DNA of 64,000 bases from Escherichia coli (GCF_024700885.2 NZ_CP117016.1); one strand, 5' to 3'; positions 1 through 57,947 are shown, numbered from the stretch's first letter. A program made the numbers and translations. The notes: generated by a model not told the origin, from the letters alone.

Positions 1-467
1 GTCGCAGCACCCGCACCGTAGCGAGGGTTTGTAAAGCAGTTAGCGGTTCCCCACAGCAGCTTCACGCCGCTCTCTTCTTGCTTGCCTGCAAGGACATCAA
101 CCATTTGCGCAAAATTATTGATGTACTCTTTTAACGACGCGCCCTCAGGGGAAACATCCACATCGTGGAAGCAATAAAATGGCACATGTAACTTGTGGAA
201 AAACTCAAATGCGACATCTGCTTTACGCTTCGCCAACGCCAGTGCCTCACCAGGCTGCTGCCACGGACGATTAAACGCCCCCACACCAAACATGTCCGCC
301 CCGTTCCAGCAGAAGGTGTGCCAGTAGCAGGCGGCAAAACGCAAGTGCTCTTCCATACGCTTGCCCAACACCAGTTCGTCGGGATTATAGTGATGGAATG
401 CTAACGGGTTAGAGGATTTTGAGCCTTCATAACGAACGCGATCGAGCTGGTCAAAATAGGCTTGCAT
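1..467 (-). CDS. xylA: Xylose isomerase, N-terminal part (gene continues beyond window start)
   Basis: Reverse-strand translation from the ATG at 465-467 reads [52 protein letters not shown]..., recognised as the XylA N-terminus. Not in the ORF track because the ORF runs off the window edge. Divergent from xylF. Confidence 0.88.
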
Positions 468-832: not shown

Positions 833-1825
833 ATGAAAATAAAGAACATTCTACTCACCCTTTGCACCTCACTTCTGCTTACCAACGTTGCGGCACACGC
901 CAAAGAAGTCAAAATAGGTATGGCGATTGATGATCTCCGTCTTGAACGCTGGCAAAAAGATCGAGATATCTTTGTGAAAAAGGCAGAATCTCTCGGCGCG
1001 AAAGTATTTGTACAGTCTGCAAATGGCAATGAAGAAACACAAATGTCGCAGATTGAAAACATGATTAACCGGGGTGTCGATGTTCTTGTCATTATTCCGT
1101 ATAACGGTCAGGTATTAAGTAACGTTGTAAAAGAAGCCAAACAAGAAGGTATTAAAGTATTAGCTTACGACCGTATGATTAACGATGCGGATATCGATTT
1201 TTATATTTCTTTCGATAACGAAAAAGTCGGTGAATTGCAGGCAAAAGCCCTGGTCGATATTGTTCCGCAAGGTAATTACTTCCTGATGGGCGGCTCGCCG
1301 GTAGATAACAACGCCAAGCTGTTCCGCGCCGGGCAAATGAAAGTGTTAAAACCTTACGTTGATTCCGGAAAAATTAAAGTCGTTGGTGACCAATGGGTTG
1401 ATGGCTGGTTACCGGAAAACGCATTAAAAATTATGGAAAACGCGCTAACCGCCAATAACAACAAAATTGATGCTGTAGTTGCCTCAAACGATGCCACCGC
1501 AGGTGGGGCAATTCAGGCATTAAGTGCGCAAGGTTTATCAGGGAAAGTAGCAATTTCCGGCCAGGATGCGGATCTCGCAGGTATTAAACGTATTGCTGCC
1601 GGTACGCAAACTATGACGGTGTATAAACCTATTACATTGTTGGCAAATACTGCCGCAGAAATTGCCGTTGAGTTGGGCAATGGTCAGGAACCAAAAGCAG
1701 ATACCACACTGAATAATGGTCTGAAAGATGTTCCCTCCCGCCTGCTGACACCGATCGATGTGAATAAAAACAACATCAAAGATACGGTAGTTAAAGACGG
1801 ATTCCACAAAGAGAGCGAGCTGTAA
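833..1825 (+). CDS. xylF: D-xylose ABC transporter periplasmic binding protein
   Basis: ORF-track protein from internal Met 27 (MKIKNILLTLCTSLLLTNVAAHA..., signal peptide); 330 aa. Track start at 755 rejected as an upstream extension. Confidence 0.93.
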   Translation: MKIKNILLTLCTSLLLTNVAAHAKEVKIGMAIDDLRLERWQKDRDIFVKKAESLGAKVFVQSANGNEETQMSQIENMINRGVDVLVIIPYNGQVLSNVVKEAKQEGIKVLAYDRMINDADIDFYISFDNEKVGELQAKALVDIVPQGNYFLMGGSPVDNNAKLFRAGQMKVLKPYVDSGKIKVVGDQWVDGWLPENALKIMENALTANNNKIDAVVASNDATAGGAIQALSAQGLSGKVAISGQDADLAGIKRIAAGTQTMTVYKPITLLANTAAEIAVELGNGQEPKADTTLNNGLKDVPSRLLTPIDVNKNNIKDTVVKDGFHKESEL

Positions 1826-1830
1826 GCGTT

Positions 1831-1855
1831 ACGCCCCGGCGCAGAGCGGGGGCGT
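1831..1855 (+). terminator. GC-rich hairpin between xylF and xylG (possible partial terminator or attenuator)
   Basis: acgccccggcgcagagcgggggcgt forms an 8-9 bp GC stem directly after the xylF stop. Weak T tract. Confidence 0.35.
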
Positions 1856-1902
1856 GATTTCTCTCCATGCCGCGTGAATGAATTGGCTTAGGTGGAGTCG
1901 TT

Positions 1903-3444
1903 ATGCCTTATCTACTTGAAATGAAGAACATTACCAAAACCTTCGGCAGTGTGAAGGCGATTGATAACGTCAGCTTGCGGTTGAATGCTGGCGAAATCGT
2001 CTCACTCTGTGGGGAAAATGGGTCTGGTAAATCAACGCTGATGAAAGTGCTGTGTGGTATTTATCCCCATGGCTCCTACGAAGGCGAAATTATTTTTGCG
2101 GGAGAAGAGATTCAGGCGAGTCACATCCGCGATACCGAACGCAAAGGTATCGCCATCATTCACCAGGAATTGGCCCTGGTGAAAGAATTGACCGTGCTGG
2201 AAAATATCTTCCTGGGTAACGAAATAACCCACAATGGCATTATGGATTATGATCTGATGACGCTACGCTGTCAGAAGCTGCTCGCACAGGTCAGTTTATC
2301 CATTTCACCTGATACCCGCGTTGGCGATTTAGGGCTTGGGCAACAACAACTGGTTGAAATTGCCAAGGCACTTAATAAACAGGTGCGCTTGTTAATTCTC
2401 GATGAACCGACAGCCTCATTAACTGAGCAGGAAACGTCGGTTTTACTGGATATTATTCGCGATCTACAACAGCACGGTATCGCCTGTATTTATATTTCGC
2501 ACAAACTCAACGAAGTCAAAGCGATTTCCGATACGATTTGCGTTATTCGCGACGGTCAGCACATTGGTACGCATAATGCTGCCGGAATGAGTGAAGACGA
2601 TATTATCACCATGATGGTCGGACGAGAGTTAACCGCGCTTTACCCTAATGAACCACATACCACCGGAGATGAAATATTACGTATTGAACATCTGACGGCA
2701 TGGCATCCGGTTAATCGTCATATTAAACGAGTTAATGATGTCTCGTTTTCCCTGAAACGTGGCGAAATACTGGGTATTGCCGGACTCGTTGGTGCCGGAC
2801 GTACCGAGACCATTCAGTGCCTGTTTGGCGTGTGGCCCGGACAATGGGAAGGAAAAATTTATATTGATGGCAAACAGGTAGATATTCGTAACTGTCAGCA
2901 AGCCATCGCCCAGGGGATTGCGATGGTACCCGAAGACAGAAAGCGCGACGGCATCGTTCCGGTAATGGCAGTTGGTAAAAATATTACCCTCGCCGCACTC
3001 AATAAATTTACCGGCGGTATTAGCCAGCTTGATGACGCGGCAGAGCAAAAATGTATTCTGGAATCAATCCAGCAACTCAAAGTTAAAACGTCGTCCCCCG
3101 ACCTTGCTATTGGACGTTTGAGCGGCGGCAATCAGCAAAAAGCGATCCTCGCTCGCTGTCTGTTACTTAACCCGCGCATCCTCATTCTTGATGAACCTAC
3201 CAGGGGTATCGATATTGGCGCGAAATACGAGATCTACAAATTAATTAACCAACTCGTCCAGCAGGGTATTGCCGTTATTGTCATCTCTTCCGAATTACCT
3301 GAAGTGCTCGGCCTTAGCGATCGTGTACTGGTGATGCATGAAGGGAAACTAAAAGCCAACCTGATAAATCATAACCTGACTCAGGAGCAGGTGATGGAAG
3401 CCGCATTGAGGAGCGAACATCATGTCGAAAAGCAATCCGTCTGA
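1903..3444 (+). CDS. xylG: D-xylose ABC transporter ATP-binding protein
   Basis: 513 aa with two ABC cassettes (Walker [10 protein letters not shown] and a second GLVGAGRTE); position after xylF. Confidence 0.93.
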
Positions 3445-4603
3445 AGTGAAATTGGCCGTACCGACATCCGGTGGCTTTTCCGGGCTGAAGTCACTGAATT
3501 TGCAGGTCTTCGTGATGATTGCAGCTATCATCGCAATCATGCTGTTCTTTACCTGGACCACCGATGGTGCCTACTTAAGCGCTCGTAACGTCTCCAACCT
3601 GTTACGCCAGACCGCGATTACCGGCATCCTCGCGGTAGGAATGGTGTTCGTCATAATTTCTGCTGAAATTGACCTTTCCGTCGGCTCAATGATGGGGCTG
3701 TTAGGTGGCGTCGCGGCGATTTGTGACGTCTGGCTAGGCTGGCCTTTGCCACTTACCATCATTGTGACTTTGGTTCTGGGACTGCTTCTCGGTGCCTGGA
3801 ACGGATGGTGGGTCGCGTACCGTAAAGTCCCTTCATTTATTGTCACCCTCGCGGGCATGTTGGCATTTCGCGGCATACTCATTGGCATCACCAACGGCAC
3901 GACTGTATCCCCCACCAGCGCCGCGATGTCACAAATTGGGCAAAGCTATCTACCTGCCAGCACCGGCTTCATCATTGGCGCGCTTGGCTTAATGGCTTTT
4001 GTTGGCTGGCAATGGCGCGGAAGAATGCGCCGTCAGGCTTTGGGTTTGCAGTCTCCGGCCTCTACCGCAGTTGTCGGTCGCCAGTCATTAACGGCGATTA
4101 TCGTCTTAGGCGCAATCTGGCTGTTGAACGATTACCGTGGCGTTCCCACTCCTGTTCTGCTGCTGACGTTGCTGTTACTCGGCGGAATGTTTATGGCAAC
4201 GCGGACGGCATTTGGACGACGCATTTATGCCATCGGCGGCAATCTGGAAGCAGCACGGCTCTCCGGGATTAACGTTGAACGCACCAAACTTGCCGTGTTC
4301 GCAATTAACGGATTAATGGTAGCCATCGCCGGATTAATCCTCAGTTCTCGACTTGGCGCTGGTTCACCTTCTGCGGGGAATATCGCCGAGCTGGACGCAA
4401 TTGCAGCATGCGTGATTGGCGGCACCAGTCTGGCTGGCGGTGTCGGGAGCGTGGCTGGAGCGGTAATGGGGGCATTCATCATGGCTTCACTGGATAACGG
4501 CATGAGTATGATGGATGTACCGACCTTCTGGCAGTATATCGTTAAAGGTGCGATTCTGTTGCTGGCAGTATGGATGGACTCCGCAACCAAACGCCGTTCT
4601 TGA
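3422..4603 (+). CDS. xylH: D-xylose ABC transporter permease
   Basis: 393-aa hydrophobic polytopic protein; overlaps the xylG stop; operon position. Confidence 0.93.
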
Positions 4604-4680
4604 TTTTGATAAAAATTTTCTCAAAGCCGGTAATGTATTACCGGTTTTGAGTTTTTGCATGATTCAGCAGGAAAAGAACC

Positions 4681-5859
4681 ATGTTTACTAAACGTCACCG
4701 CATCACATTACTGTTCAATGCCAATAAAGCCTATGACCGGCAGGTAGTAGAAGGCGTAGGGGAATATTTACAGGCGTCACAATCGGAATGGGATATTTTC
4801 ATTGAAGAAGATTTCCGCGCCCGCATTGATAAAATCAAGGACTGGTTAGGAGATGGCGTCATTGCCGACTTCGACGACAAACAAATCGAGCAAGCGCTAG
4901 CTGATGTCGACGTCCCCATTGTTGGGGTTGGTGGCTCGTATCACCTTGCCGAAAGTTACCCACCCGTTCATTACATTGCCACCGATAACTATGCGCTGGT
5001 TGAAAGCGCATTTTTGCATTTAAAAGAGAAAGGCGTTAACCGCTTTGCTTTTTATGGTCTTCCGGAATCAAGCGGTAAACGTTGGGCCACTGAACGCGAA
5101 TATACATTTCGTCAGCTTGTCGCCGAAGAAAAGTATCGCGGAGTGGTTTATCAGGGGTTAGAAACCGCGCCAGAGAACTGGCAACACGCGCAAAATCGGC
5201 TGGCAGACTGGCTACAAACGCTGCCACCGCAAACCGGGATTATTGCCGTTACTGACGCCCGGGCGCGGCATATTCTGCAAGTATGTGAACATCTACACAT
5301 TCCCGTACCGGAAAAATTATGCGTGATTGGCATCGATAACGAAGAACTGACCCGCTATCTGTCGCGTGTCGCCCTTTCTTCGGTCGCTCAGGGCGCGCGG
5401 CAAATGGGCTATCAGGCGGCAAAACTGTTGCATCGATTATTAGATAAAGAAGAAATGCCGCTACAGCGGATTTTGGTCCCTCCAGTTCGCGTCATTGAAC
5501 GGCGCTCAACAGATTACCGCTCGCTGACCGATCCCGCCGTTATTCAGGCCATGCATTACATTCGTAATCACGCCTGTAAAGGGATTAAAGTGGATCAGGT
5601 ACTCGATGCGGTCGGGATCTCGCGCTCCAATCTTGAGAAGCGTTTTAAAGAAGAAGTGGGCGAAACCATCCATGCCATGATTCATGCCGAGAAGTTGGAG
5701 AAAGCGCGAAGTCTGCTGATTTCAACCACCTTGTCGATCAATGAGATATCGCAAATGTGCGGTTATCCATCGCTGCAATATTTCTACTCTGTTTTTAAAA
5801 AAGCATATGACACGACGCCAAAAGAGTATCGCGATGTAAATAGCGAGGTCATGTTGTAG
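4681..5859 (+). CDS. xylR: Xylose operon transcriptional activator (AraC family, periplasmic-binding-like N-domain)
   Basis: 392 aa; C-terminal AraC-type helix-turn-helix (…ISQMCGYPSLQYFYSVFKKAYDTTPKEYR); synteny. Confidence 0.93.
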   Translation: MFTKRHRITLLFNANKAYDRQVVEGVGEYLQASQSEWDIFIEEDFRARIDKIKDWLGDGVIADFDDKQIEQALADVDVPIVGVGGSYHLAESYPPVHYIATDNYALVESAFLHLKEKGVNRFAFYGLPESSGKRWATEREYTFRQLVAEEKYRGVVYQGLETAPENWQHAQNRLADWLQTLPPQTGIIAVTDARARHILQVCEHLHIPVPEKLCVIGIDNEELTRYLSRVALSSVAQGARQMGYQAAKLLHRLLDKEEMPLQRILVPPVRVIERRSTDYRSLTDPAVIQAMHYIRNHACKGIKVDQVLDAVGISRSNLEKRFKEEVGETIHAMIHAEKLEKARSLLISTTLSINEISQMCGYPSLQYFYSVFKKAYDTTPKEYRDVNSEVML

Positions 5860-5875
5860 CGATGATGAGAATTGT

Positions 5876-5955
5876 CGGCGTCGCATCAGGTAACTCAGCA
5901 CAACCACCTGATGCGAGCAAAAGCCTTATCCGACTGACAAGTCGGATAAGGCTCG
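5876..5955. repeat. REP-type palindromic units between convergent xylR and bax
   Basis: Two imperfect palindromes (gcatcagg…cctgatgc and agccttatccgac…gtcggataaggct) typical of enterobacterial REP elements. Confidence 0.55.
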
Positions 5956-5966
5956 AGGAAATGCAA

Positions 5967-6791
5967 TTACATATGCGCCGCGATTAACCGTTGGTTATCC
6001 TGGTACATTGCGAACAGGTAGTTGTTATAACTCTTCCCTTTGGTCGAGTAGCCCTTCAGCTTGTGAATCATCGCTGTGGCAGTCACTTCCTGATCCGCTT
6101 TACGCAGCTGTGCACGCGATTTACGGAACGAAGAGTAAGCCGGGTGCGTATTCAGGTTAGTGACATAGGCGCTCACCGATTCTTTGACAGAACTAAACTG
6201 TGAGTACCCTTTCACTTTACCCGGCGCATTGGTACAACGTCCTTTCATGCATTTCATGCCGAACAGATTGTTGTTGTTGCGCGCCAGCTTTGACGTTCCC
6301 CAACCGCTTTCTGCTGCAGCCATCGTCGCCACCATACTGGTAGGGATAATGTCTACGCGTTCAAGCAAGGTATTCCACGGGATTTTTCGCGTATTACCAG
6401 ACCACTTCACCTTGTAGCGTTTGGCGATGTCTTTCAGACGCGCACGCTCAGCAGGTGACCATTGGCCCTGATACTGTTTTGAAATCAGCCAGTTACGTTC
6501 CGCAGTAATGGCCGCATTTTGGCTGGTAATGTAAGGCATTACAGTCCGGAGAAACGCCTTTTTCCTTGGTGTTCCGGAAGGGTATTTTCGCAAATCAGGA
6601 AGTGAACTACTCTTTGCACTATTGCGAGAATACTCTTGTTTACTGCTTACCTGTTTATTACTAGCTTTAGTTAAGTGGGACTTTTGACTCGCTGTTGTTG
6701 TGTGCGTCTTCGCTAACACCTCACTCGAAAACACCAGAGTGAGTAACATAAGAATCATCGCCCCATATCGTCGTATGGGAGTCAAAATCAT
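5967..6791 (-). CDS. bax: Bax protein (putative glucosaminidase-like, signal peptide)
   Basis: 274-aa ORF on the minus strand with an N-terminal hydrophobic leader; position between xylR and malS. Confidence 0.8.
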   Translation of the reverse strand: MILTPIRRYGAMILMLLTLVFSSEVLAKTHTTTASQKSHLTKASNKQVSSKQEYSRNSAKSSSLPDLRKYPSGTPRKKAFLRTVMPYITSQNAAITAERNWLISKQYQGQWSPAERARLKDIAKRYKVKWSGNTRKIPWNTLLERVDIIPTSMVATMAAAESGWGTSKLARNNNNLFGMKCMKGRCTNAPGKVKGYSQFSSVKESVSAYVTNLNTHPAYSSFRKSRAQLRKADQEVTATAMIHKLKGYSTKGKSYNNYLFAMYQDNQRLIAAHM

Positions 6792-7110
6792 CAGGTCTCC
6801 TGGTCGGATTTAATCATTCCAACACCTTATATTTTTCACAAATTTGAGAGTTGAATCTCAAATCATATCAAAAATAGCTGTCAAGAGCACCCCAAGGAAT
6901 AGTCCAAATCTGAAACTATGTCACGAGTTAACGATTCAGATTGGCGCTAAATCGCAGAAAATGTGGGGTTTATCGCAAAATTCAGCCGTTTTTTGCGCGC
7001 GATCGCTCACCCTTGCTTCTCATCCTGTGGACTTACCGCTCAGGGATGAGTTTTGTCTGGCTTATCGCTGGCAAACTGTCTGAAATCGCAGCAATAAGGA
7101 CTCATCCGCC

Positions 7111-9141
7111 ATGAAACTCGCCGCCTGTTTTCTGACACTCCTTCCTGGCTTCGCCGTTGCCGCCAGCTGGACTTCTCCGGGGTTTCCCGCCTTTAGCGAA
7201 CAGGGGACGGGAACATTTGTCAGCCACGCGCAGTTGCCCAAAGGTACGCGTCCACTAACGCTAAATTTTGACCAACAGTGCTGGCAGCCTGCGGATGCGA
7301 TAAAACTCAATCAGATGCTTTCCCTGCAACCTTGTAGCAACACGCCACCTCAATGGCGATTGTTCAGGGACGGCGAATATACGCTGCAACTAGACACCCG
7401 CTCCGGTACACCAACATTGATGATTTCCATCCAGAACGCCGTCGAACCGGTAGCAAGCCTGGTCCGTGAATGCCCGAAATGGGATGGATTACCGCTCACA
7501 CTGGATGTTAGCGCCACTTTTCCGGAGGGAGCCGCCGTCCGGGATTATTACAGCCAGCAAATTGCGATAGTGAAGAACGGTCAAATAACGTTACAACCCG
7601 CTGCCACCAGCAACGGTTTACTCCTGCTGGAACGGGCAGAAACTGACGCCTCCGCCCCTTTCGACTGGCATAACGCCACGGTTTACTTTGTGCTGACAGA
7701 TCGTTTCGAAAACGGCGATCCCAGTAATGACCAGAGTTACGGACGTCATAAAGACGGTATGGCAGAAATTGGCACTTTTCACGGCGGCGATTTACGCGGC
7801 CTGACCAACAAACTGGATTACCTCCAGCAGCTGGGCGTCAATGCTTTATGGATAAGTGCCCCATTTGAGCAAATTCACGGCTGGGTCGGCGGCGGTACAA
7901 AAGGTGATTTCCCGCATTATGCCTATCATGGTTATTACACCCAGGACTGGACGAACCTTGATGCCAATATGGGCAGCGAAGCCGATCTACGGACGCTGGT
8001 TGATAGCGCGCATCAGCGCGGTATTCGTATTCTCTTTGATGTCGTGATGAACCACACCGGCTATGCCACACTGGCGGATATGCAGGAGTATCAGTTTGGC
8101 GCGTTATATCTTTCTGGTGACGAAGTGAAAAAAACGTTGGGGGAACGCTGGAGCGACTGGAAACCTGCCGCCGGGCAAACCTGGCATAGCTTTAACGATT
8201 ACATTAATTTCAGCGACAAAACAGGCTGGGATAAATGGTGGGGAAAAAACTGGATCAGAACCGATATCGGCGATTACGACAATCCGGGATTTGACGATCT
8301 CACTATGTCGCTGGCCTTTTTGCCGGATATCAAAACCGAATCAACTACCGCTTCAGGTCTGCCGGTGTTCTATAAAAACAAAACGAATACCCACGCTAAA
8401 GTCATCGACGGTTTTACCCCTCGCGATTACTTAACCCACTGGTTAAGTCAGTGGGTTCGCGACTATGGGATTGATGGTTTTCGGGTCGATACCGCCAAAC
8501 ATGTTGAGTTGCCCGCCTGGCAGCAACTGAAAACCGAAGCCAGCGCCGCACTTCGCGAATGGAAAAAAGCTAACCCCGACAAAACATTAGATGACAAACC
8601 GTTCTGGATGACCGGTGAAGCCTGGGGCCACGGCGTGATGCAAAGTGACTACTATCGCCACGGCTTCGATGCGATGATCAATTTCGATTATCAGGAGCAG
8701 GCGGCTAAAGCAGTCGATTGTCTGGCGCAGATGGATACTACCTGGCAGAAAATGGCGGAGAAATTGCAGGATTTCAACGTGTTGAGCTACCTCTCGTCGC
8801 ATGATACCCGCCTGTTCCGTGAAGGGGGCGACAAAGCAGCAGAGTTATTATTATTAGCGCCAGGCGCGGTACAAATCTTTTATGGTGATGAATCCTCGCG
8901 TCCGTTCGGCCCCACCGGTTCGGATCCGCTGCAAGGTACGCGTTCGGATATGAACTGGCAGGATGTTAGCGGTAAATCTGCCGCCAGCGTCGCGCACTGG
9001 CAGAAAATCAGCCAGTTCCGCGCCCGCCATCCCGCAATTGGCGAGGGCAAACAAACGACACTTTCGCTGAAGCAGGGCTACGGCTTTGTTCGTGAGCATG
9101 GCGACGATAAAGTGCTGGTCATCTGGGCTGGGCAACAGTGA
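7111..9141 (+). CDS. malS: Periplasmic alpha-amylase
   Basis: 676 aa with signal peptide and GH13 motifs (GIRILFDVVMNHTG, GFRVDTAKHV); synteny. Confidence 0.93.
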   Translation: MKLAACFLTLLPGFAVAASWTSPGFPAFSEQGTGTFVSHAQLPKGTRPLTLNFDQQCWQPADAIKLNQMLSLQPCSNTPPQWRLFRDGEYTLQLDTRSGTPTLMISIQNAVEPVASLVRECPKWDGLPLTLDVSATFPEGAAVRDYYSQQIAIVKNGQITLQPAATSNGLLLLERAETDASAPFDWHNATVYFVLTDRFENGDPSNDQSYGRHKDGMAEIGTFHGGDLRGLTNKLDYLQQLGVNALWISAPFEQIHGWVGGGTKGDFPHYAYHGYYTQDWTNLDANMGSEADLRTLVDSAHQRGIRILFDVVMNHTGYATLADMQEYQFGALYLSGDEVKKTLGERWSDWKPAAGQTWHSFNDYINFSDKTGWDKWWGKNWIRTDIGDYDNPGFDDLTMSLAFLPDIKTESTTASGLPVFYKNKTNTHAKVIDGFTPRDYLTHWLSQWVRDYGIDGFRVDTAKHVELPAWQQLKTEASAALREWKKANPDKTLDDKPFWMTGEAWGHGVMQSDYYRHGFDAMINFDYQEQAAKAVDCLAQMDTTWQKMAEKLQDFNVLSYLSSHDTRLFREGGDKAAELLLLAPGAVQIFYGDESSRPFGPTGSDPLQGTRSDMNWQDVSGKSAASVAHWQKISQFRARHPAIGEGKQTTLSLKQGYGFVREHGDDKVLVIWAGQQ

Positions 9142-51490: not shown

Positions 51491-52174
51491 ATGAACCTAA
51501 AGAAAACACTGTTAAGCGTGTTAATAATAGTGCCTCTCTGCTTATTGGCAGGGTGTGACTATATTGAAAAAGCGAGTAAGGTCGACGACCTCGTTACACA
51601 GCAAGAGTTGCAAAAAAGCAAAATTGAGGCGCTTGAGAAACAACAGGAACTCGATAAGCGAAAGATAGAACATTTTGAAAAACAACAAACTACTATCATA
51701 AATAGTACCAAGACGCTCGCTGGCGTGGTGAAAGCGGTTAAAGACAAACAGGACGAATTTGTCTTTACAGAATTTAACCCGGCACAAACACAATACTTCA
51801 TTCTAAATAACGGTTCTGTCGGTTTGGCAGGTCGGGTGCTGGCTATTGATGCGGTTGAAAACGGCAGCGTTATTCGTATTTCACTAGTCAATCTATTAAG
51901 CGTTCCCGTATCAAATATTGGCTTTCATGCGACATGGGGCAATGAAAGACCCACCGATGCCAAAGCTCTGGCGAAGTGGCAACAATTACTTTTCAACACC
52001 ACCATGAATTCCACTCTGCAATTAATGCCTGGTCAATGGCAAGACATTAATCTGACATTAAAAGGCGTTTCGCCTAATAACCTGAAGTATCTGAAGTTGT
52101 CCATCAATATGGCAAATCTCCAGTTCGACACTGTTCAATCTGCTGAAACTCGGCAGCGAAAAAACAAAAAATAA
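51491..52174 (+). CDS. Lipoprotein with N-terminal coiled-coil segment
   Basis: 227 aa; lipobox LLAGC after the signal peptide; repeated KQQEL/EKQQ heptad-like segment; AT-rich context; immediately upstream of the autotransporter. Confidence 0.6.
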   Translation: MNLKKTLLSVLIIVPLCLLAGCDYIEKASKVDDLVTQQELQKSKIEALEKQQELDKRKIEHFEKQQTTIINSTKTLAGVVKAVKDKQDEFVFTEFNPAQTQYFILNNGSVGLAGRVLAIDAVENGSVIRISLVNLLSVPVSNIGFHATWGNERPTDAKALAKWQQLLFNTTMNSTLQLMPGQWQDINLTLKGVSPNNLKYLKLSINMANLQFDTVQSAETRQRKNKK

Positions 52175-52217: not shown

Positions 52218-55200
52218 ATGAACAAAATTTTTAAAGTTATCTGGAATCCAGCGACGGGCAGTTACAGCGTTGCCAGCGAAACGGCGAAGAGCCGTGGCAA
52301 AAAGAGCGGACGCAGTAAGCTGTTAATTTCTGCGCTGGTTGCGGGTGGGCTGTTGTCGTCGTTTGGGGCAAGTGCAGATAATTACACTGGGCAGCCAACT
52401 GATTATGGCGATGGCTCAGCAGGTGACGGCTGGGTTGCTATCGGTAAAGGTTCAAAAGCAAATACCTTTATAAACACAAGTGGCGCGAGTACAGCTTTAG
52501 GTTATGACGCGATAGCCGAAGGTGAGTACAGCTCTGCCATCGGGTCAAAAACCCTCGCAAGTGGTGGAGCATCCATGGCGTTTGGGGTTAGTGCAAAAGC
52601 ATTAGGTGACAGAAGTGTCGCGCTGGGTGCATCTTCAACAGCAACTGGCGATCGTTCGATGGCTCTTGGTCGTTACGCAAAGACGAACGGTTTTACATCT
52701 CTTGCTGTTGGGGACTCCTCCCTTGCCGATGGTGAAAAAACTATTGCGTTAGGAAATACGGCTAAAGCTTACGAAATTATGAGCATCGCCCTCGGTGATA
52801 ATGCCAATGCGTCAAAAGAATATTCAATGGCGCTGGGTGCAAGTAGCGCCGCATCTGCGGCTAACGCGATTGCAGTAGGCCGCAACAGTGCTGCTGCTGG
52901 CGTAGACAGCCTCGCATTAGGTAGACAATCACTTGCCAGTGCAGCGAACGCCATTACGATTGGTGCTGAAAGCGAAGCCGCTGAAAATGCGACGGCTGTA
53001 GGTACTAAAGCGAAAGCTCGAGGCAAAAACAGTCTTGCATTAGGTGCAAACAGTGATTCAACAGGTGAAGGTTCTGTTGCCCTGGGATATACAGCAGCGG
53101 CTGCTGGCGCAAGTGCTCTTGCCTTGGGGCAAAATGCGCAAGCATCAAACACAAACACCATTGCATTAGGCCAGAACAGCAGCGCATCAACCGCAAATGC
53201 TATTGCGATCGGTACAGGAAGTTCTGCGGTTGGATCAAACAGTCTTGCATTGGGAAGTTCATCTTCTGCAGGAGGGAATAATTCCGTCGCGATTGGTGCA
53301 AGCTCTACTGCAGATGAAGACAACGTTGTGTCGGTCGGCTCAGGGTCAGCACAGCGTCGCATCGTCAATATGGCGGCAGGTGAAATCTCAACAGACAGTA
53401 AAGAAGCCATTAACGGTTCACAACTTTACGCCATTAGTCGGTCGGTAGCAGACAGGCTGGGAGGCGGAGCAGATGTAGCCAGTAACGGAACAATAAAGGG
53501 GATGTCTTATAAACTGAAGAAAAGGGATTTCAATAACGTTGGTGAAGCACTCCAGTACCTTGACAATGAAACTCTGCACTGGGACTCAGCTAAAGGGGCT
53601 TTCAGCGCCAGTTATATTGTTAAAAATGCTGATGGAACGATTGCCAGTACCGTAGCAGAAAACAAAATCATCAATGTAAAAGATGGCGATATTTCGGCTA
53701 CCAGTAAAGACGCCATTAACGGCTCTCAGCTGAAAACCACCAACGATAACGTAGCGACCAACACCACCAATATCACCAACCTGACTGATTCCGTTGGCGA
53801 CCTTAAAGACGATGCCCTGCTGTGGAATGGCACCGCATTCAGCGCCGCTCACGGTACCGATGCCACCAGCAAAATCACCAACGTCAAAGACGGTGACCTG
53901 ACGGCTGGCAGCACTGACGCGGTAAACGGCTCTCAGCTCAAAACCACTAACGATGCCGTGGCAGCCAACACCACCAATATCGCCACGAACACCACCAACA
54001 TCACCAACCTGACTGACGCTGTTGACAGTCTCGGTGATGACTCTCTGCTGTGGAACGCTACTGCGGGGGCATTCAGTGCCGCGCACGGTACTGATGCCAC
54101 CAGCAAAATCACTAACGTCAAAGACGGTGACCTGACGGCTGGCAGCACTGACGCGGTTAACGGCTCTCAGCTCAAAACCACTAACGATGCCGTGGCAGCC
54201 AACACCACCAATATCGCCACGAACACCACCAACATCACCAACCTGACTGACGCTGTTGACAGTCTCGGTGATGACTCTCTGCTGTGGAATGATGCAGCGA
54301 AAGCATTCAGCGCCGCGCACGGTACTGATGCCACCAGCAAAATCACCAACGTCAAAGACGGTGACCTGACGGCTGGCAGCACTGACGCGGTTAACGGCTC
54401 TCAGCTAAAAACCACTAACGATGCCGTGACAGCCAACACCACCAATATCGCCACTAACACCACCAACATCACCAACCTGACTGACGCTGTTGACAGTCTC
54501 GGTGATGACTCTCTGCTGTGGAACGCTACTGCGGGGGCATTCAGCGCCGCGCACGGTACTGATGCCACCAGCAAAATCACTAACGTCAAAGACGGTGACC
54601 TGACGGCTGGCAGCACTGACGCGGTTAACGGCTCTCAGCTCAAAACCACTAACGATGCTGTGGCAGCCAACACCACCAATATCGCCACGAACACCACCAA
54701 CATCACCAACCTGACTGACGCTGTTGACAGTCTCGGTGACGATTCCCTGCTGTGGAACGCTACGGCGGGGGCATTCAGTGCCGCACACGGTACTGATGCC
54801 ACCAGCAAAATCACTAACGTCAAAGACGGTGACCTGACGGCTGGCAGCACTGACGCGGTTAACGGCTCTCAGCTCAAAACCACCAACGATAATGTGGCAA
54901 CCAACACCACCAATATCGCCACGAATACCACCAACATCACCAACCTGACTGACGCTGTTGACAGTCTCGGTGACGATTCCCTGCTGTGGAACGCTACGGC
55001 GGGGGCATTCAGTGCCGCACACTGTACTGATGCCACCAGCAAAATCACTAACGTCAAAGACGGTGACCTGACGGCTGGCAGCACTGACGCGGTTAACGGC
55101 TCTCAGCTCAAAACCACCAACGATAATGTGGCAACCAACACCACCAATATCGCCACGAATACCACCAACATCACCAACCTGACTGACGCTGTTGACAGTC

Positions 55201-57947
55201 TCGGTGATGACTCTCTGCTGTGGAACGCTACGGCGGGTGCATTCAGTGCCAAACACGGCACCAACGGTACTGACAGCAAAATCACCAACTTACTGGCAGG
55301 CACTGTATCCTCTGATAGCACTGACGCCATTAATGGCTCACAACTTTATGGCTTAGCTGATTCATTTACGTCATACCTTGGCGGTGGTGCTGATATCAGT
55401 GATGCGGGTGTATTAACCGGGCCAACCTACACTATTGGTGGTACTGACTACAATAACGTCGGTGATGCTCTGGCTGCCATTAACACGTCATTTAGCACAT
55501 CACTCGGTGATGCCCTACTCTGGGATGCGACCGCCAAGGGCGGTGACGGTGCGTTTAGCGCCGGTCGCGGAAAAGATAACACGGCCAGCATCATTACTAA
55601 TGTTGCAGACGGTGCAATTTCCTCTACCAGCAGCGACGCTATTAACGGCTCACAGCTCTATGACACCAGCAAGTACATTGCCGATACTCTGGGTGGTGAC
55701 GCAGAAGTCAATGCTGACGGCACAATCACCGCACCGACTTATGCCATCGCTGGCGGCAGTTACAGCAACGTCGGTGACGCGCTGGAAGCGATCGATACCA
55801 CGCTGGATGACGCTCTGTTGTGGGATGCAACAGCCAATGATGGCAATGGTGCATTTAGCGCCGCTCACGGAAAAGATAAAACAGCCAGTGTAATCACTAA
55901 CGTCGCTAACGGTGCAATCTCTGCCACCAGCAGCGATGCCATTAACGGTTCACAACTGTATACCACCAACAAGTACATTGCCGATGCCCTGGGTGGTGAC
56001 GCAGAAGTTAACGCTGATGGTTCTATTACTGCGCCGACTTACACCATTGCAAATGCCGAGTACAACAACGTCGGTGACGCCCTGGATGCGCTCGACGATA
56101 ACGCTCTGCTGTGGGATGCAACAGCCAATGACGGCGCAGGTGCCTACAACGCCAGCCATGACGGCAAGGCCAGCATCATCACAAATGTTGCTGATGGTAA
56201 CATTGGCGAAGGCAGCACTGACGCCATCAACGGTTCTCAGCTGTTTAACACCAATATGCTGATCCAGCAGAACAGCGAAATCATCAATCAGCTTGCCGGT
56301 AACACCAGCGAAACCTACATCGAAGATAACGGTGCGGGCATTAACTATGTACGTACCAACGACAACGGCTTAGCGTTCAACGATGCCAGCGCTTCAGGTA
56401 TTGGCGCTACGGCTGTGGGTTATAACGCTGTCGCCTCAGGCGAAAGCAGCGTAGCCATTGGTCAAGGTAGCAGCAGCTCCGTTGATACGGGTATCGCCCT
56501 GGGTAGCAGTTCCGTTTCCAGCCGTGTAATAGTTAAAGGTTCTCGTGACACCAGCGTGTCGGAAGAAGGTGTTGTGATTGGTTATGACACCACGGATGGC
56601 GAACTACTTGGTGCGTTGTCTATTGGTGATGACGGTAAATATCGTCAAATCATCAACGTAGCCGATGGTTCCGAAGCCCATGACGCCGTTACGGTTCGCC
56701 AGTTGCAAAATGCCATTGGTGCAGTCGCTACCACGCCGACCAAATACTTCCACGCTAACTCAACAGCTGAAGATTCACTGGCTGTCGGTGAAGACTCGCT
56801 GGCAATGGGTGCGAAAACCATTGTTAATGGTGATGCAGGGATCGGTATTGGCCTGAACACTCTGGTGTTAACTGATGCAATCAACGGTATTGCTATCGGT
56901 AGCAACGCGAGTGCAAATCATGCAAACAGTATTGCGATGGGTAGTGGTTCCCAGACCACCCGTGGTGCGCAGACTGACTACACCGCCTACAACATGGACG
57001 CGCCGCAGAATTCTGTCGGTGAATTCTCTGTCGGCAGCGAAGACGGTCAACGTCAGATCACCAACGTCGCGGCTGGTTCAGCGGATACCGATGCGGTTAA
57101 CGTAGGTCAGTTGAAAGTCACTGATGAGCGCGTAGCGCAAAATACCCAGAGCATTACTAACCTGAACAATCAGGTGACGAATCTGGATACTCGCGTTACC
57201 AATATCGAAAACGGCATTGGCGATATCGTAACCACCGGTAGCACCAAATACTTCAAGACCAACACCGATGGCGTAGATGCCAACGCGCAGGGTAAAGATA
57301 GTGTTGCGATTGGTTCTGGTTCCATTGCTGCCGCTGACAACAGCGTCGCGCTGGGTACCGGTTCCGTGGCCAACGAAGAAAACACCATCTCTGTGGGTTC
57401 TTCTACCAACCAGCGTCGTATCACCAACGTTGCTGCAGGTGTTAATGCCACCGATGCGGTTAACGTTTCGCAGCTGAAGTCTTCTGAGGCAGGCGGCGTT
57501 CGTTACGACACCAAAGCTGATGGTTCTATAGACTACAGCAACATCACTCTCGGTGGTGGTAATGGCGGTACGACTCGCATCAACAACGTCTCCGCTGGCG
57601 TCAACAACAACGACGCAGTGAACTATGCGCAGCTGAAGCAAAGCGTGCAGGAAACGAAGCAATATACCGATCAGCGGATGGTTGAGATGGATAACAAACT
57701 GTCCAAAACCGAAAGCAAGTTGAGCGGTGGTATCGCTTCTGCAATGGCAATGACCGGTCTGCCGCAGGCTTACACTCCAGGTGCCAGCATGGCCTCTATT
57801 GGTGGCGGTACTTACAATGGTGAATCGGCTGTTGCTTTAGGTGTGTCGATGGTGAGCGCCAATGGTCGTTGGGTCTACAAATTACAAGGTAGTACCAATA
57901 GCCAGGGTGAATACTCCGCCGCGCTCGGTGCCGGTATTCAGTGGTAA
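52218..57947 (+). CDS. upaG: Trimeric autotransporter adhesin (UpaG/EhaG-like)
   Basis: 1909 aa; extended signal peptide ([21 protein letters not shown]…); many head/neck repeats with INGSQL and NVAAG motifs; C-terminal YadA-type anchor ending …[13 protein letters not shown]. Symbol from recalled location beside lldP; exact allele not determinable. Confidence 0.85.
53845..55260 (+). repeat. In-frame 234-bp tandem repeat array (about 6 units) inside the adhesin gene
   Basis: The 60-mer acgtcaaagacggtgacctgacggctggcagcactgacgcggt(a/t)aacggctctcagctca recurs at 53881, 54115, 54349, 54583, 54817 and 55051, a spacing of exactly 234 bp; each unit encodes a 78-aa repeat. Confidence 0.9.

Follow-up and report, generated by a model that had tools for sequence, protein, structure and literature searches.

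Copy-number variation of near-identical 234-bp stalk modules in an Escherichia coli trimeric autotransporter adhesin of the SadA/UpaG/EhaG type

A gene for a SadA/UpaG/EhaG-type adhesin, located in a 64,000-nucleotide stretch of Escherichia coli DNA (GCF_024700885.2, NZ_CP117016.1; hereafter the window), carries six near-identical stalk modules in tandem within its passenger, and misaligned pairing among these modules very probably varies their number and with it the length of the stalk. Near-identical units of 234 bp would pair out of register during homologous recombination, with whole modules gained or lost as a result, and the reading frame would stay intact because the unit length is a multiple of three. 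Unequal sister-chromosome exchange, replication slippage and gene conversion are the candidate routes within this inferred pathway. The same misaligned pairing would also shuffle sequence among units, and its expected outcome would be a set of alleles in which stalk length and the count of DALL-neck hairpins are the chief differences, with head, anchor and neighbouring genes constant.

By its domain content the encoded protein appears to be a trimeric autotransporter adhesin (type Vc secretion), with many YadA_head and YadA_stalk/neck Pfam matches in the passenger, and its family membership suggests a trimer on the outer membrane. Judged from sequence and position, it is an E. coli member of the SadA/UpaG/EhaG adhesins: the locus order is mtlA-mtlD-mtlR-yibT-yibL-sadB-adhesin-lldP-lldR-lldD, which places the gene between the mtl and lld operons, the position that defines this group according to PMC3953254. 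The upstream sadB-like open reading frame is named 'SadB/YajI family lipoprotein' or DUF3251 in RefSeq; it had no NCBIfam match at E<=1e-3, and its identity came from the match to PDB 4c47. It is separated from the adhesin gene by 43 bp, compared with 44 bp between sadB and sadA in Salmonella, where the sadBA operon lies between mtl and lld (PMC3953254), and the two genes probably form one operon. An NCBIfam scan of the adhesin surfaced no UpaG, EhaG or SadA model, and its matches to Vomp, EmaA, Ata, BimA and YadA all fell far below their cut-offs. The RefSeq-annotated UpaG of ATCC 25922 aligns with 72% identity over 1828 aa. The adhesin gene is 100% identical to its counterpart in NZ_CP117013.1 (strain MLI114), the product of which is already a RefSeq entry (WP_265255676.1, 'YadA-like family protein'); this exact protein is found on 3 contigs, and the common six-unit allele on 37. 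As the first-pass annotation had stated, the allele is longer than UpaG (1778 aa, PMC12525524), in this case by 131 aa, and than EhaG (about 160 kDa, PMC7247748). E300010, with 2065 aa, encodes a longer protein still. Features of the gene and its surroundings are collected in Table 1.

Table 1. Features of the adhesin locus; positions are counted from the first letter of the window.
Feature	Position	Strand	Basis
sadB-like inner-membrane lipoprotein gene, 227 aa	51491-52174	+	SadB structure 4c47 match, E=2.6e-69
Trimeric autotransporter adhesin gene, 1909 aa plus stop	52218-57947	+	ORF call; positional orthologue of UpaG/EhaG/SadA
Extended signal peptide region (ESPR), residues 1-48	52218-52361	+	Pfam PF13018, E=2.9e-15
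N-terminal YadA-like head repeats, residues about 91-377	52488-53348	+	Multiple PF05658 matches
Diverged upstream stalk unit, 79 aa, residues 461-539	53598-53834	+	Repeat families; AFSA anchor at residue 461
Six-unit array, residues 540-1007	53835-55238	+	Tandem Repeats Finder, repeat search, Pfam, SadA structure alignment
21-bp (heptad) sub-repeat in coiled coil, 1.9 copies, encoding [14 protein letters not shown]	53967-54006	+	Tandem Repeats Finder, period 21
Private substitution in unit 6, T against G in ten other aligned arrays	55023	+	Array alignment
Four older, diverged, longer stalk units of the same family	55239-56255 (end approximate)	+	Tandem Repeats Finder, repeat families
C-terminal YadA-like membrane anchor, residues 1849-1909	57762-57944	+	Pfam PF03895, E=2.6e-19

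Tandem Repeats Finder reports a single array at 53835-55250 with period 234, 6.1 copies, 96% matches, 0% indels and a score of 2531, and a second repeat search recovers six copies at a spacing of exactly 234 nt. The units start at 53835, 54069, 54303, 54537, 54771 and 55005, and the array is in frame with the open reading frame. The next 234 nt differ from the units at 155-162 positions and are unrelated at this level; the full units therefore number six, the last of which ends at 55238. A six-unit periodicity of this kind is far beyond chance. The 60-nt segment that the first-pass annotation had described as recurring six times at this exact spacing does so: the copy at 53845-53904 is found again at 54079, 54313, 54547, 54781 and 55015 with 2-4 mismatches, and has no further occurrence on either strand of the window with up to 12 mismatches allowed. 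The coordinates given there, 53845-55260, describe the same array with its phase shifted by 10 nt.

Pairs of units differ at 5-17 of 234 nt and at 0-6 of 78 aa, corresponding to 93-98% nucleotide and 92-100% protein identity, and each of the six has its own substitution pattern. Sixteen of the 25 variable columns are third codon positions, and the amino-acid differences concentrate in two short patches (DAVAAN/DNVATN and NATAG/NDAAK). Three elements make up each unit: the DALL connector [12 protein letters not shown], the DDSLLWN part of which closes the preceding unit; the short neck [23 protein letters not shown]; and a coiled coil with NTTNIxT heptads, about 35 residues in length. The identification of the repeat as a 78-aa adhesin stalk module, also proposed initially, is upheld by the presence of ESPR, YadA_head, YadA_stalk/neck and YadA_anchor domains, by one YadA_stalk Pfam match per unit, and by alignment of the unit to three SadA DALL-neck constructs of solved structure, 2ynz, 2yo2 and 3zmf (E=1e-15 to 3e-13), the first of which is listed as a DALL exemplar (PMC7247746). 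The heptad sub-repeat of the first unit occurs again in units 2-4 at 54201, 54435 and 54669. The private substitution in unit 6 produces Gly936Cys, the sole cysteine of the protein, and is confined to the window's allele. Flanking the array, the upstream stalk unit shares about 75% nucleotide identity with the array units over 132 nt; the first three diverged units downstream are 104, 100 and 97 aa long and contain an extra insert, the fourth starts at 56142, and a repeat of 300-bp period with copies 79% identical covers 55548-56095. Two long minus-strand open reading frames across the region (53586-54320 and 54405-55256) were rejected as genes, given that substitutions between units favour third positions of the plus-strand frame; their length follows from the periodicity, which leaves one antisense frame with only one stop in six units.

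Using the adhesin gene minus its array as query, we identified 30 complete E. coli genomes with flanks at least 99% identical. The gene spans 5730 bp in 24 of these, 5720, 6198, 5496 and 5262 bp in one each, and 5028 bp in two. Six units are present in the 24, six units with probable sequencing errors in SW4848, and 8 (E300010), 5 (AST240), 4 (F344), 3 (TUM14759) and 3 (UID2309220033) units in the others; intact genes differ in span only by whole multiples of 234. The variant alleles are annotated as intact coding sequences of 2065, 1831, 1753 and 1675 aa, and the examined alleles with 3, 4, 5, 6 and 8 units are intact open reading frames. Outside the array (1617 and 2709 nt of the gene, and 1500 nt on each side) the near-identical genomes show 0-2 differences, and nearly all polymorphism across 8.7 kb falls within the array, a distribution indicative of unequal recombination and gene conversion. 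In the variant arrays units are chimeric, follow a different order and in places repeat unchanged (five consecutive identical units in E300010), and three six-unit alleles with identical flanks differ in composition. In both AST240 and F344 the 25 kb upstream are about 100% identical to the window. The expectation that such an array expands and contracts by recombination and so alters adhesin length is supported by this comparison, with counts of 3, 3, 4, 5, 6 or 8, chimeric units and flanks that differ by 0-2 bases. Any single variant count (3, 4, 5 or 8) rests on an assembly and could in principle be a collapse or an expansion, and de Bruijn collapse could create chimeric units too.

The first-pass annotation had also flagged the array as an assembly hazard, and the corresponding alternative is that the six-unit count in the window is itself an artefact, a repeat collapsed or over-expanded by short reads. 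An array of 234-bp units, 93-98% identical over 1.4 kb, does exceed typical short reads, and the related assembly SW4848 has sequence-quality problems restricted to the array. We nevertheless regard an artefact in the window as extremely improbable: 24 further complete genomes, each assembled independently and drawn from various hosts and countries, have the same 5730-bp gene length, MLI114 matches with 100% identity across the gene and 25 kb upstream, and each unit is distinguishable by its own substitutions. The hazard is plausible as a general matter, with indirect support from the errors of SW4848 inside the array; the window is not mis-assembled. Of the two outcomes that were named as counting against the proposal, other assemblies of the window's allele do not differ in copy number, and across isolates the count varies. 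The SW4848 allele, annotated 'frameshifted', has ten single-base deletions, all within the array and none in its flanks, that sit in short base runs or simple repeats such as G5, A4 and CTCT; they look like unpolished long-read error within a repeat, and for these reasons a natural pseudogene is less likely than sequence error.

Surface proteins commonly use repeat-mediated switching, and shuffling resembling phase variation has been proposed for badA (PMC8859334). The array could accordingly be viewed as a contingency locus, programmed for phase or antigenic variation by on/off switching or high-frequency epitope change, the more so as the amino-acid differences between units gather at DAVAAN/DNVATN and NATAG/NDAAK. 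This is very unlikely. A unit of 78 codons keeps every gain or loss in frame and the examined variant alleles are intact, the sole frameshifted copy shows the scattered deletions typical of sequencing error, and shuffling units that are 92-100% identical in protein would yield almost no new epitopes. Neither a dedicated recombinase nor a silent cassette was found in the locus neighbourhood. The same count also occurs in 24 of the 30 nearest genomes, which span hosts and continents, and this indicates that the array is not hypervariable on short time scales, although the prevalence of six units may partly reflect sampling of one clone.

Across the species, megablast matched the unit in 1029 of 5426 complete E. 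coli genomes, at 1-8 places per genome (median 4), a measure that only approximates unit number, as strain 042 gives 4 places against 3 strict 78-aa units. Gene length at the adhesin locus ranges from 1518 to 2065 aa among the alleles examined. Scaled from published SadA and BadA fibre lengths, each unit would contribute roughly 4-8 nm of stalk, and length may in turn affect adhesion, aggregation, masking by O-antigen or capsule, and antigenicity. Copy-number differences could equally be real and functionally neutral, a mutational by-product in which stalk length has no selected role, a reading that we find plausible if, on balance, slightly doubtful. Counts in E. coli run from 0 or 1 up to 8, and no clear link to host stands out among the entries seen; binding of fibronectin and collagen by BadA followed expression and not the observed length differences (PMC8859334), and PMC7688925 argues for non-adaptive evolution of trimeric autotransporter repeats in Brucella/Brucellaceae. 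Against neutrality, the high protein identity of the units and their mostly synonymous differences suggest that the modules are under purifying selection or frequent homogenisation. Repeat number in Cha alters adhesion and aggregation and that in YadA must match injectisome length, as cited in PMC9704523, and fibronectin binding by BadA is a cumulative effect of its DALL-neck motifs (PMC9602544). These effects belong to other trimeric adhesins and would extend to UpaG or EhaG by analogy.

A more specific functional proposal, which we consider unlikely, treats the array as a selectable dial of length and avidity, in which 3-8 units, the range within one near-clonal E. coli lineage, set both the projection of the head past O-antigen or capsule and the number of DALL-neck hairpins available for matrix binding, with the co-encoded SadB required to hold three chains of near-identical modules in register. 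Were it true, unit number would co-vary with O/K surface type or niche, and dependence on SadB would grow with unit number.

Several characterised systems can be compared with the recombining stalk array proposed here. UpaG (of the uropathogenic E. coli CFT073 type) and EhaG (EHEC O157:H7), for which extracellular-matrix binding, autoaggregation and biofilm formation have been reported (PMC7247748, PMC12525524), share with the adhesin the locus yibL-sadB-adhesin-lldP and the domain architecture. UpaG is above 90% identical across the C-terminal two thirds, whereas its head region aligns differently, and it has three 78-aa units about 87% identical to the consensus, plus shorter variants, where the window's allele has six. 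SadA of Salmonella enterica is the positional orthologue, between mtl and lld with sadB upstream, and has the DALL-neck-coiled-coil module in common. It is 1461 aa long, its fibre has been modelled at about 108 nm, and it contains six consecutive stalk repeats of 70-120 aa with 55 to over 90% identity (PMC3953254). The repeats of the E. coli adhesin are the more homogeneous of the two (exactly 78 aa, 92-100% protein identity), and their number varies among near-identical strains; SadA, in contrast, is described as strongly conserved in S. enterica (PMC7247748).

Variation in repeat number is itself documented in more distant adhesins. BadA of Bartonella henselae is likewise trimeric, with a stalk of repeated FGG, coiled-coil and DALL-neck domains; badA length varies by recombination between isolates, correct sizing needed long reads, and fibre length tracks gene length (PMC8859334). 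It differs in scale and setting, with 2920-4407 aa, about 30 domains, an island with pseudogene donors and inactivation by frameshift, as against a single gene with a short array and no donor cassettes in E. coli. Cha (Haemophilus cryptic genospecies) and YadA are also trimeric, and as summarised in PMC9704523 their stalk repeat number either changes adhesion and aggregation or must match another surface machine; their repeats are shorter and unrelated in sequence, and the experimental functional effect belongs to them. The Periscope Proteins (SasG, Sgo_0707, Rib and others) combine near-identical DNA repeats with a rod-like stalk of strain-variable repeat number in long-read assemblies, for which a like mechanism, intragenic recombination followed by length selection, has been proposed (PMC8201768). 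The adhesin shows the repeat property of these proteins, with 93-98% nucleotide identity and 3-8 units in near-identical backgrounds, but the class comprises monomeric proteins with individually folding repeats and explicitly excludes trimeric autotransporters (PMC9704523). By analogy, the adhesin would work like a periscope protein while standing outside the class.

Nothing here is new in kind, as repetitive SadA stalks and repeat-number variation in BadA, Cha and YadA are already published, and the copy-number variation, while real, is expected behaviour of such proteins. The practical points are modest, and the current understanding of the SadA/UpaG/EhaG family is unchanged. Both UpaG and EhaG have been considered as targets for vaccines and for anti-adhesion approaches, and near-identical strains can differ by up to 390 aa, so that gene-presence typing and short-read assemblies can misreport the adhesin; residual errors inside the repeat may also lead annotation pipelines to call a pseudogene, as in SW4848. 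For the biology of the family, the natural series of 1-8 modules would be a handy one in which to test the role of stalk length in trimeric adhesins, and that of SadB in guarding chain register.

A single strong tandem array of period 234 lies in frame within the only long plus-strand ORF, spanning 6.1 copies at 96% matches without indels (score 2531, Tandem Repeats Finder), and a separate repeat search returned six copies at an exact 234-nt spacing. The first-pass annotation had described this same array 10 nt out of phase, as a recurring 60-nt segment encoding a 78-aa stalk repeat; the segment indeed occurs five further times, each copy 234 nt after the last and carrying 2-4 mismatches, and nowhere outside the array on either strand of the 64-kb window, and one unit corresponds to 78 residues. 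Any two units differ at 5-17 of 234 nucleotides and 0-6 of 78 residues, with third codon positions making up 16 of the 25 variable columns among the six. Because the 234 nt following the sixth unit are unrelated at such similarity, there are exactly six full units. Two antisense ORFs over the array (244 and 283 aa) were rejected as genes and regarded as by-products of repeat periodicity, since one antisense frame contains a single stop across six units.

Features of the adhesin locus (window coordinates, or residues of the 1909-aa protein)
Feature	Position	Strand	Basis or remark
SadB orthologue (DUF3251 ORF)	51491-52174	+	Salmonella SadB crystal structure 4c47, E=2.6e-69; 43 bp upstream of adhesin
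Adhesin gene	52218-57947	+	1909 aa
ESPR extended signal peptide	residues 1-48		Pfam
YadA-like head repeats, block	residues about 91-377		Pfam
YadA_stalk/neck			Pfam; one match per repeat unit, more on both sides
YadA_anchor, C-terminal	residues 1849-1909		Pfam
Diverged stalk unit preceding array	53598-53834		one unit
Array, as detected	53835-55250		period 234
Array, six full units	53835-55238		
Longer diverged stalk units, same family	55239 to about 56255		four units
Second tandem repeat	55548-56095	+	period 300, 1.8 copies, 79% identical
Antisense ORF, rejected	53586-54320	-	244 aa
Antisense ORF, rejected	54405-55256	-	283 aa

Judged by its Pfam matches, the encoded protein has the complete architecture of a trimeric autotransporter adhesin, with ESPR, head, stalk/neck and anchor. 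E. coli strain MLI114 has a 100% identical gene, whose product is recorded as 'YadA-like family protein' (WP_265255676.1); the order there is mtlA-mtlD-mtlR-yibT-yibL-DUF3251-adhesin-lldP-lldR-lldD. The upstream SadB orthologue had no NCBIfam match at E<=1e-3, and newer RefSeq records call it 'SadB/YajI family lipoprotein'. Members of the SadA/UpaG/EhaG orthologous group are recognised by a sadB-sadA operon lying between mtl and lld, which K-12 has lost by deletion (PMC3953254). ATCC 25922 carries at the same position a gene annotated upaG, whose 1778-aa product is shorter than the window allele, in agreement with the first-pass annotation; the two proteins are 72% identical over 1828 aa and almost the same in their C-terminal two thirds. 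Genes in the 25 kb upstream (27001-52000) include selAB, aldB, yiaY, the mtl operon and one for an RHS element core protein. Coverage of this stretch falls to about 81-85% for many genomes that are otherwise close, suggesting that its variable part is the RHS region.

[quoted passage not shown] Read on this alignment, one period comprises a coiled coil, a DALL connector and a short neck, the coiled coil being built of NTTNIxT heptads that Tandem Repeats Finder reports as a 21-bp sub-repeat. Diverged units on both sides of the array mark the six near-identical ones as the recent centre of a repeat series that is itself older. Stalk units encoded by the second, older tandem repeat are longer (about 100 aa) and carry an additional insertion separating the neck from the coiled coil.

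A full-gene search returned 25 complete genomes at >=99% identity, of which 24 had 5730 bp and one (SW4848) 5720 bp; gene lengths in close relatives were 5496 and 5262 bp, 234 and 468 bp shorter. A second search used the gene minus its array (4326 nt), so that array length could be read from the distance spanned in each genome. Flanks were >=99% identical in 30 genomes; taking each variant count as assembly-level evidence, 24 of these carry six units (5730 bp), SW4848 six with ten single-base deletions (5720 bp), E300010 eight (6198 bp), AST240 five (5496 bp), F344 four (5262 bp), and TUM14759 and UID2309220033 three (5028 bp). Tandem Repeats Finder and RefSeq coding sequences confirmed the counts of 8, 5, 4 and 3, in intact ORFs of 2065, 1831, 1753 and 1675 aa. 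Six units is the clear mode (24/30, or 25/30 with SW4848), and the array is thus not hypervariable. Gene length varies likewise in another allele family (5253 bp, with variants of 5019 and 4785 bp), alleles examined at the locus encode from at least 1518 up to 2065 aa, and the unit itself matched 1029 of 5,426 genomes by megablast, at 1-8 places per genome (median 4).

Outside the array the compared alleles differ at 0-2 positions in the gene (4326 nt) and 0-2 in the 1500 nt either side; on direct comparison all remaining differences are confined to the array. Over the 25 kb upstream, identity to the window is about 100% for both AST240 and F344. The variant arrays are chimeras of the window's units: AST240 units 3 and 4, mutually identical, join the 5' part of window unit 3 to the 3' end of unit 2. 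PCP07014, WP4-S18-ESBL-07 and S1-SRL-01-C have six units and identical flanks, yet differ in unit composition, and only two changes separate the window from the commonest allele, a block of 7 nt where unit 3 ends and a single substitution in unit 6. Chimeric units on near-identical flanks bear the mark of unequal exchange and gene conversion among the units, and point to an array changing much faster than substitutions build up in its flanks. The expansion and contraction by recombination proposed in the first-pass annotation is therefore supported by 3-8 units on near-identical flanks. Modules are gained and lost in frame and units homogenised, possibly by RecA-dependent unequal exchange or slippage; the array is not a frameshift-type contingency locus.

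The longest allele seen, in E300010 (NZ_CM128601.1, locus 1501-7698; 8 units, 2065 aa), contains five consecutive identical units, a 1170-bp perfect repeat that short reads could not resolve and that indicates a very recent expansion. The region upstream of this locus is absent among the best 45 matches to 27001-52000; beyond the locus, E300010 may thus differ from the window.

Mis-assembly, the hazard also raised for such arrays, is very unlikely in the window given the same six-unit count in 24 other assemblies; the hazard does appear in SW4848. There (NZ_CP107284.1, locus 1501-7220), ten single-base deletions relative to the nearest alleles fall in the equivalent of window 54065-55001, mostly in short base runs or simple repeats (e.g. 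G5, A4, CTCT), and the gene is annotated 'frameshifted'. A true pseudogene is disfavoured because all ten lie inside the array and none in about 7.3 kb of flanks; judging from the assembly alone, the simplest explanation is long-read error, probably unpolished, left in a repeat beyond the reach of short-read polishing.

In unit 6 of the window, a T at 55023 converts the conserved Gly of AFSAAHGTD to Cys (codon 936), the only cysteine in the adhesin; all ten other arrays aligned have G. Just 3 contigs encode exactly this 1909-aa protein, compared with 37 that encode the common six-unit allele; the T may be a sequencing error or a SNP private to this allele. In a homotrimer, Cys936 would place three cysteines at one fibre level.

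The adhesin resembles Periscope Proteins in its near-identical DNA repeats, strain-variable repeat number and rod-like stalk, but that class is monomeric with independently folding domains, and trimeric autotransporters are explicitly outside it (PMC9704523). The array is real, was correctly interpreted at first pass, and is an ordinary feature: the exact protein is already in RefSeq, and repetitive stalks in this group and recombination-driven stalk length variation in trimeric adhesins are already published. A census of 3-8 units on identical flanks within a lineage may be unreported for this locus, and is what a specialist would expect.

Published fibre lengths, about 108 nm for the 1461-aa SadA (PMC7247746) and 155-243 nm for BadA of 2920-4407 aa (PMC8859334), correspond to about 0.05-0.07 nm per residue, and adding a ~35-residue coiled coil to a DALL-neck gives a slightly higher figure. 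By analogy, one unit would contribute roughly 4-8 nm, and 3- and 8-unit alleles would differ in length by some 20-40 nm. Precedents for an effect of length point different ways: repeat number alters adhesion and aggregation by Cha, YadA length must match the injectisome (both cited in PMC9704523), and BadA DALL-neck motifs bind fibronectin cumulatively (PMC9602544), whereas BadA binding does not track natural length differences (PMC8859334). Since LPS and fimbriae mask SadA function (PMC7247748), stalk length is a plausible variable, and it may matter for UpaG/EhaG function. SadB, a trimeric inner-membrane lipoprotein, has been proposed to synchronise export of repetitive adhesin chains and to prevent their out-of-register pairing (PMC3953254); with six to eight near-identical modules, this register problem would be acute.
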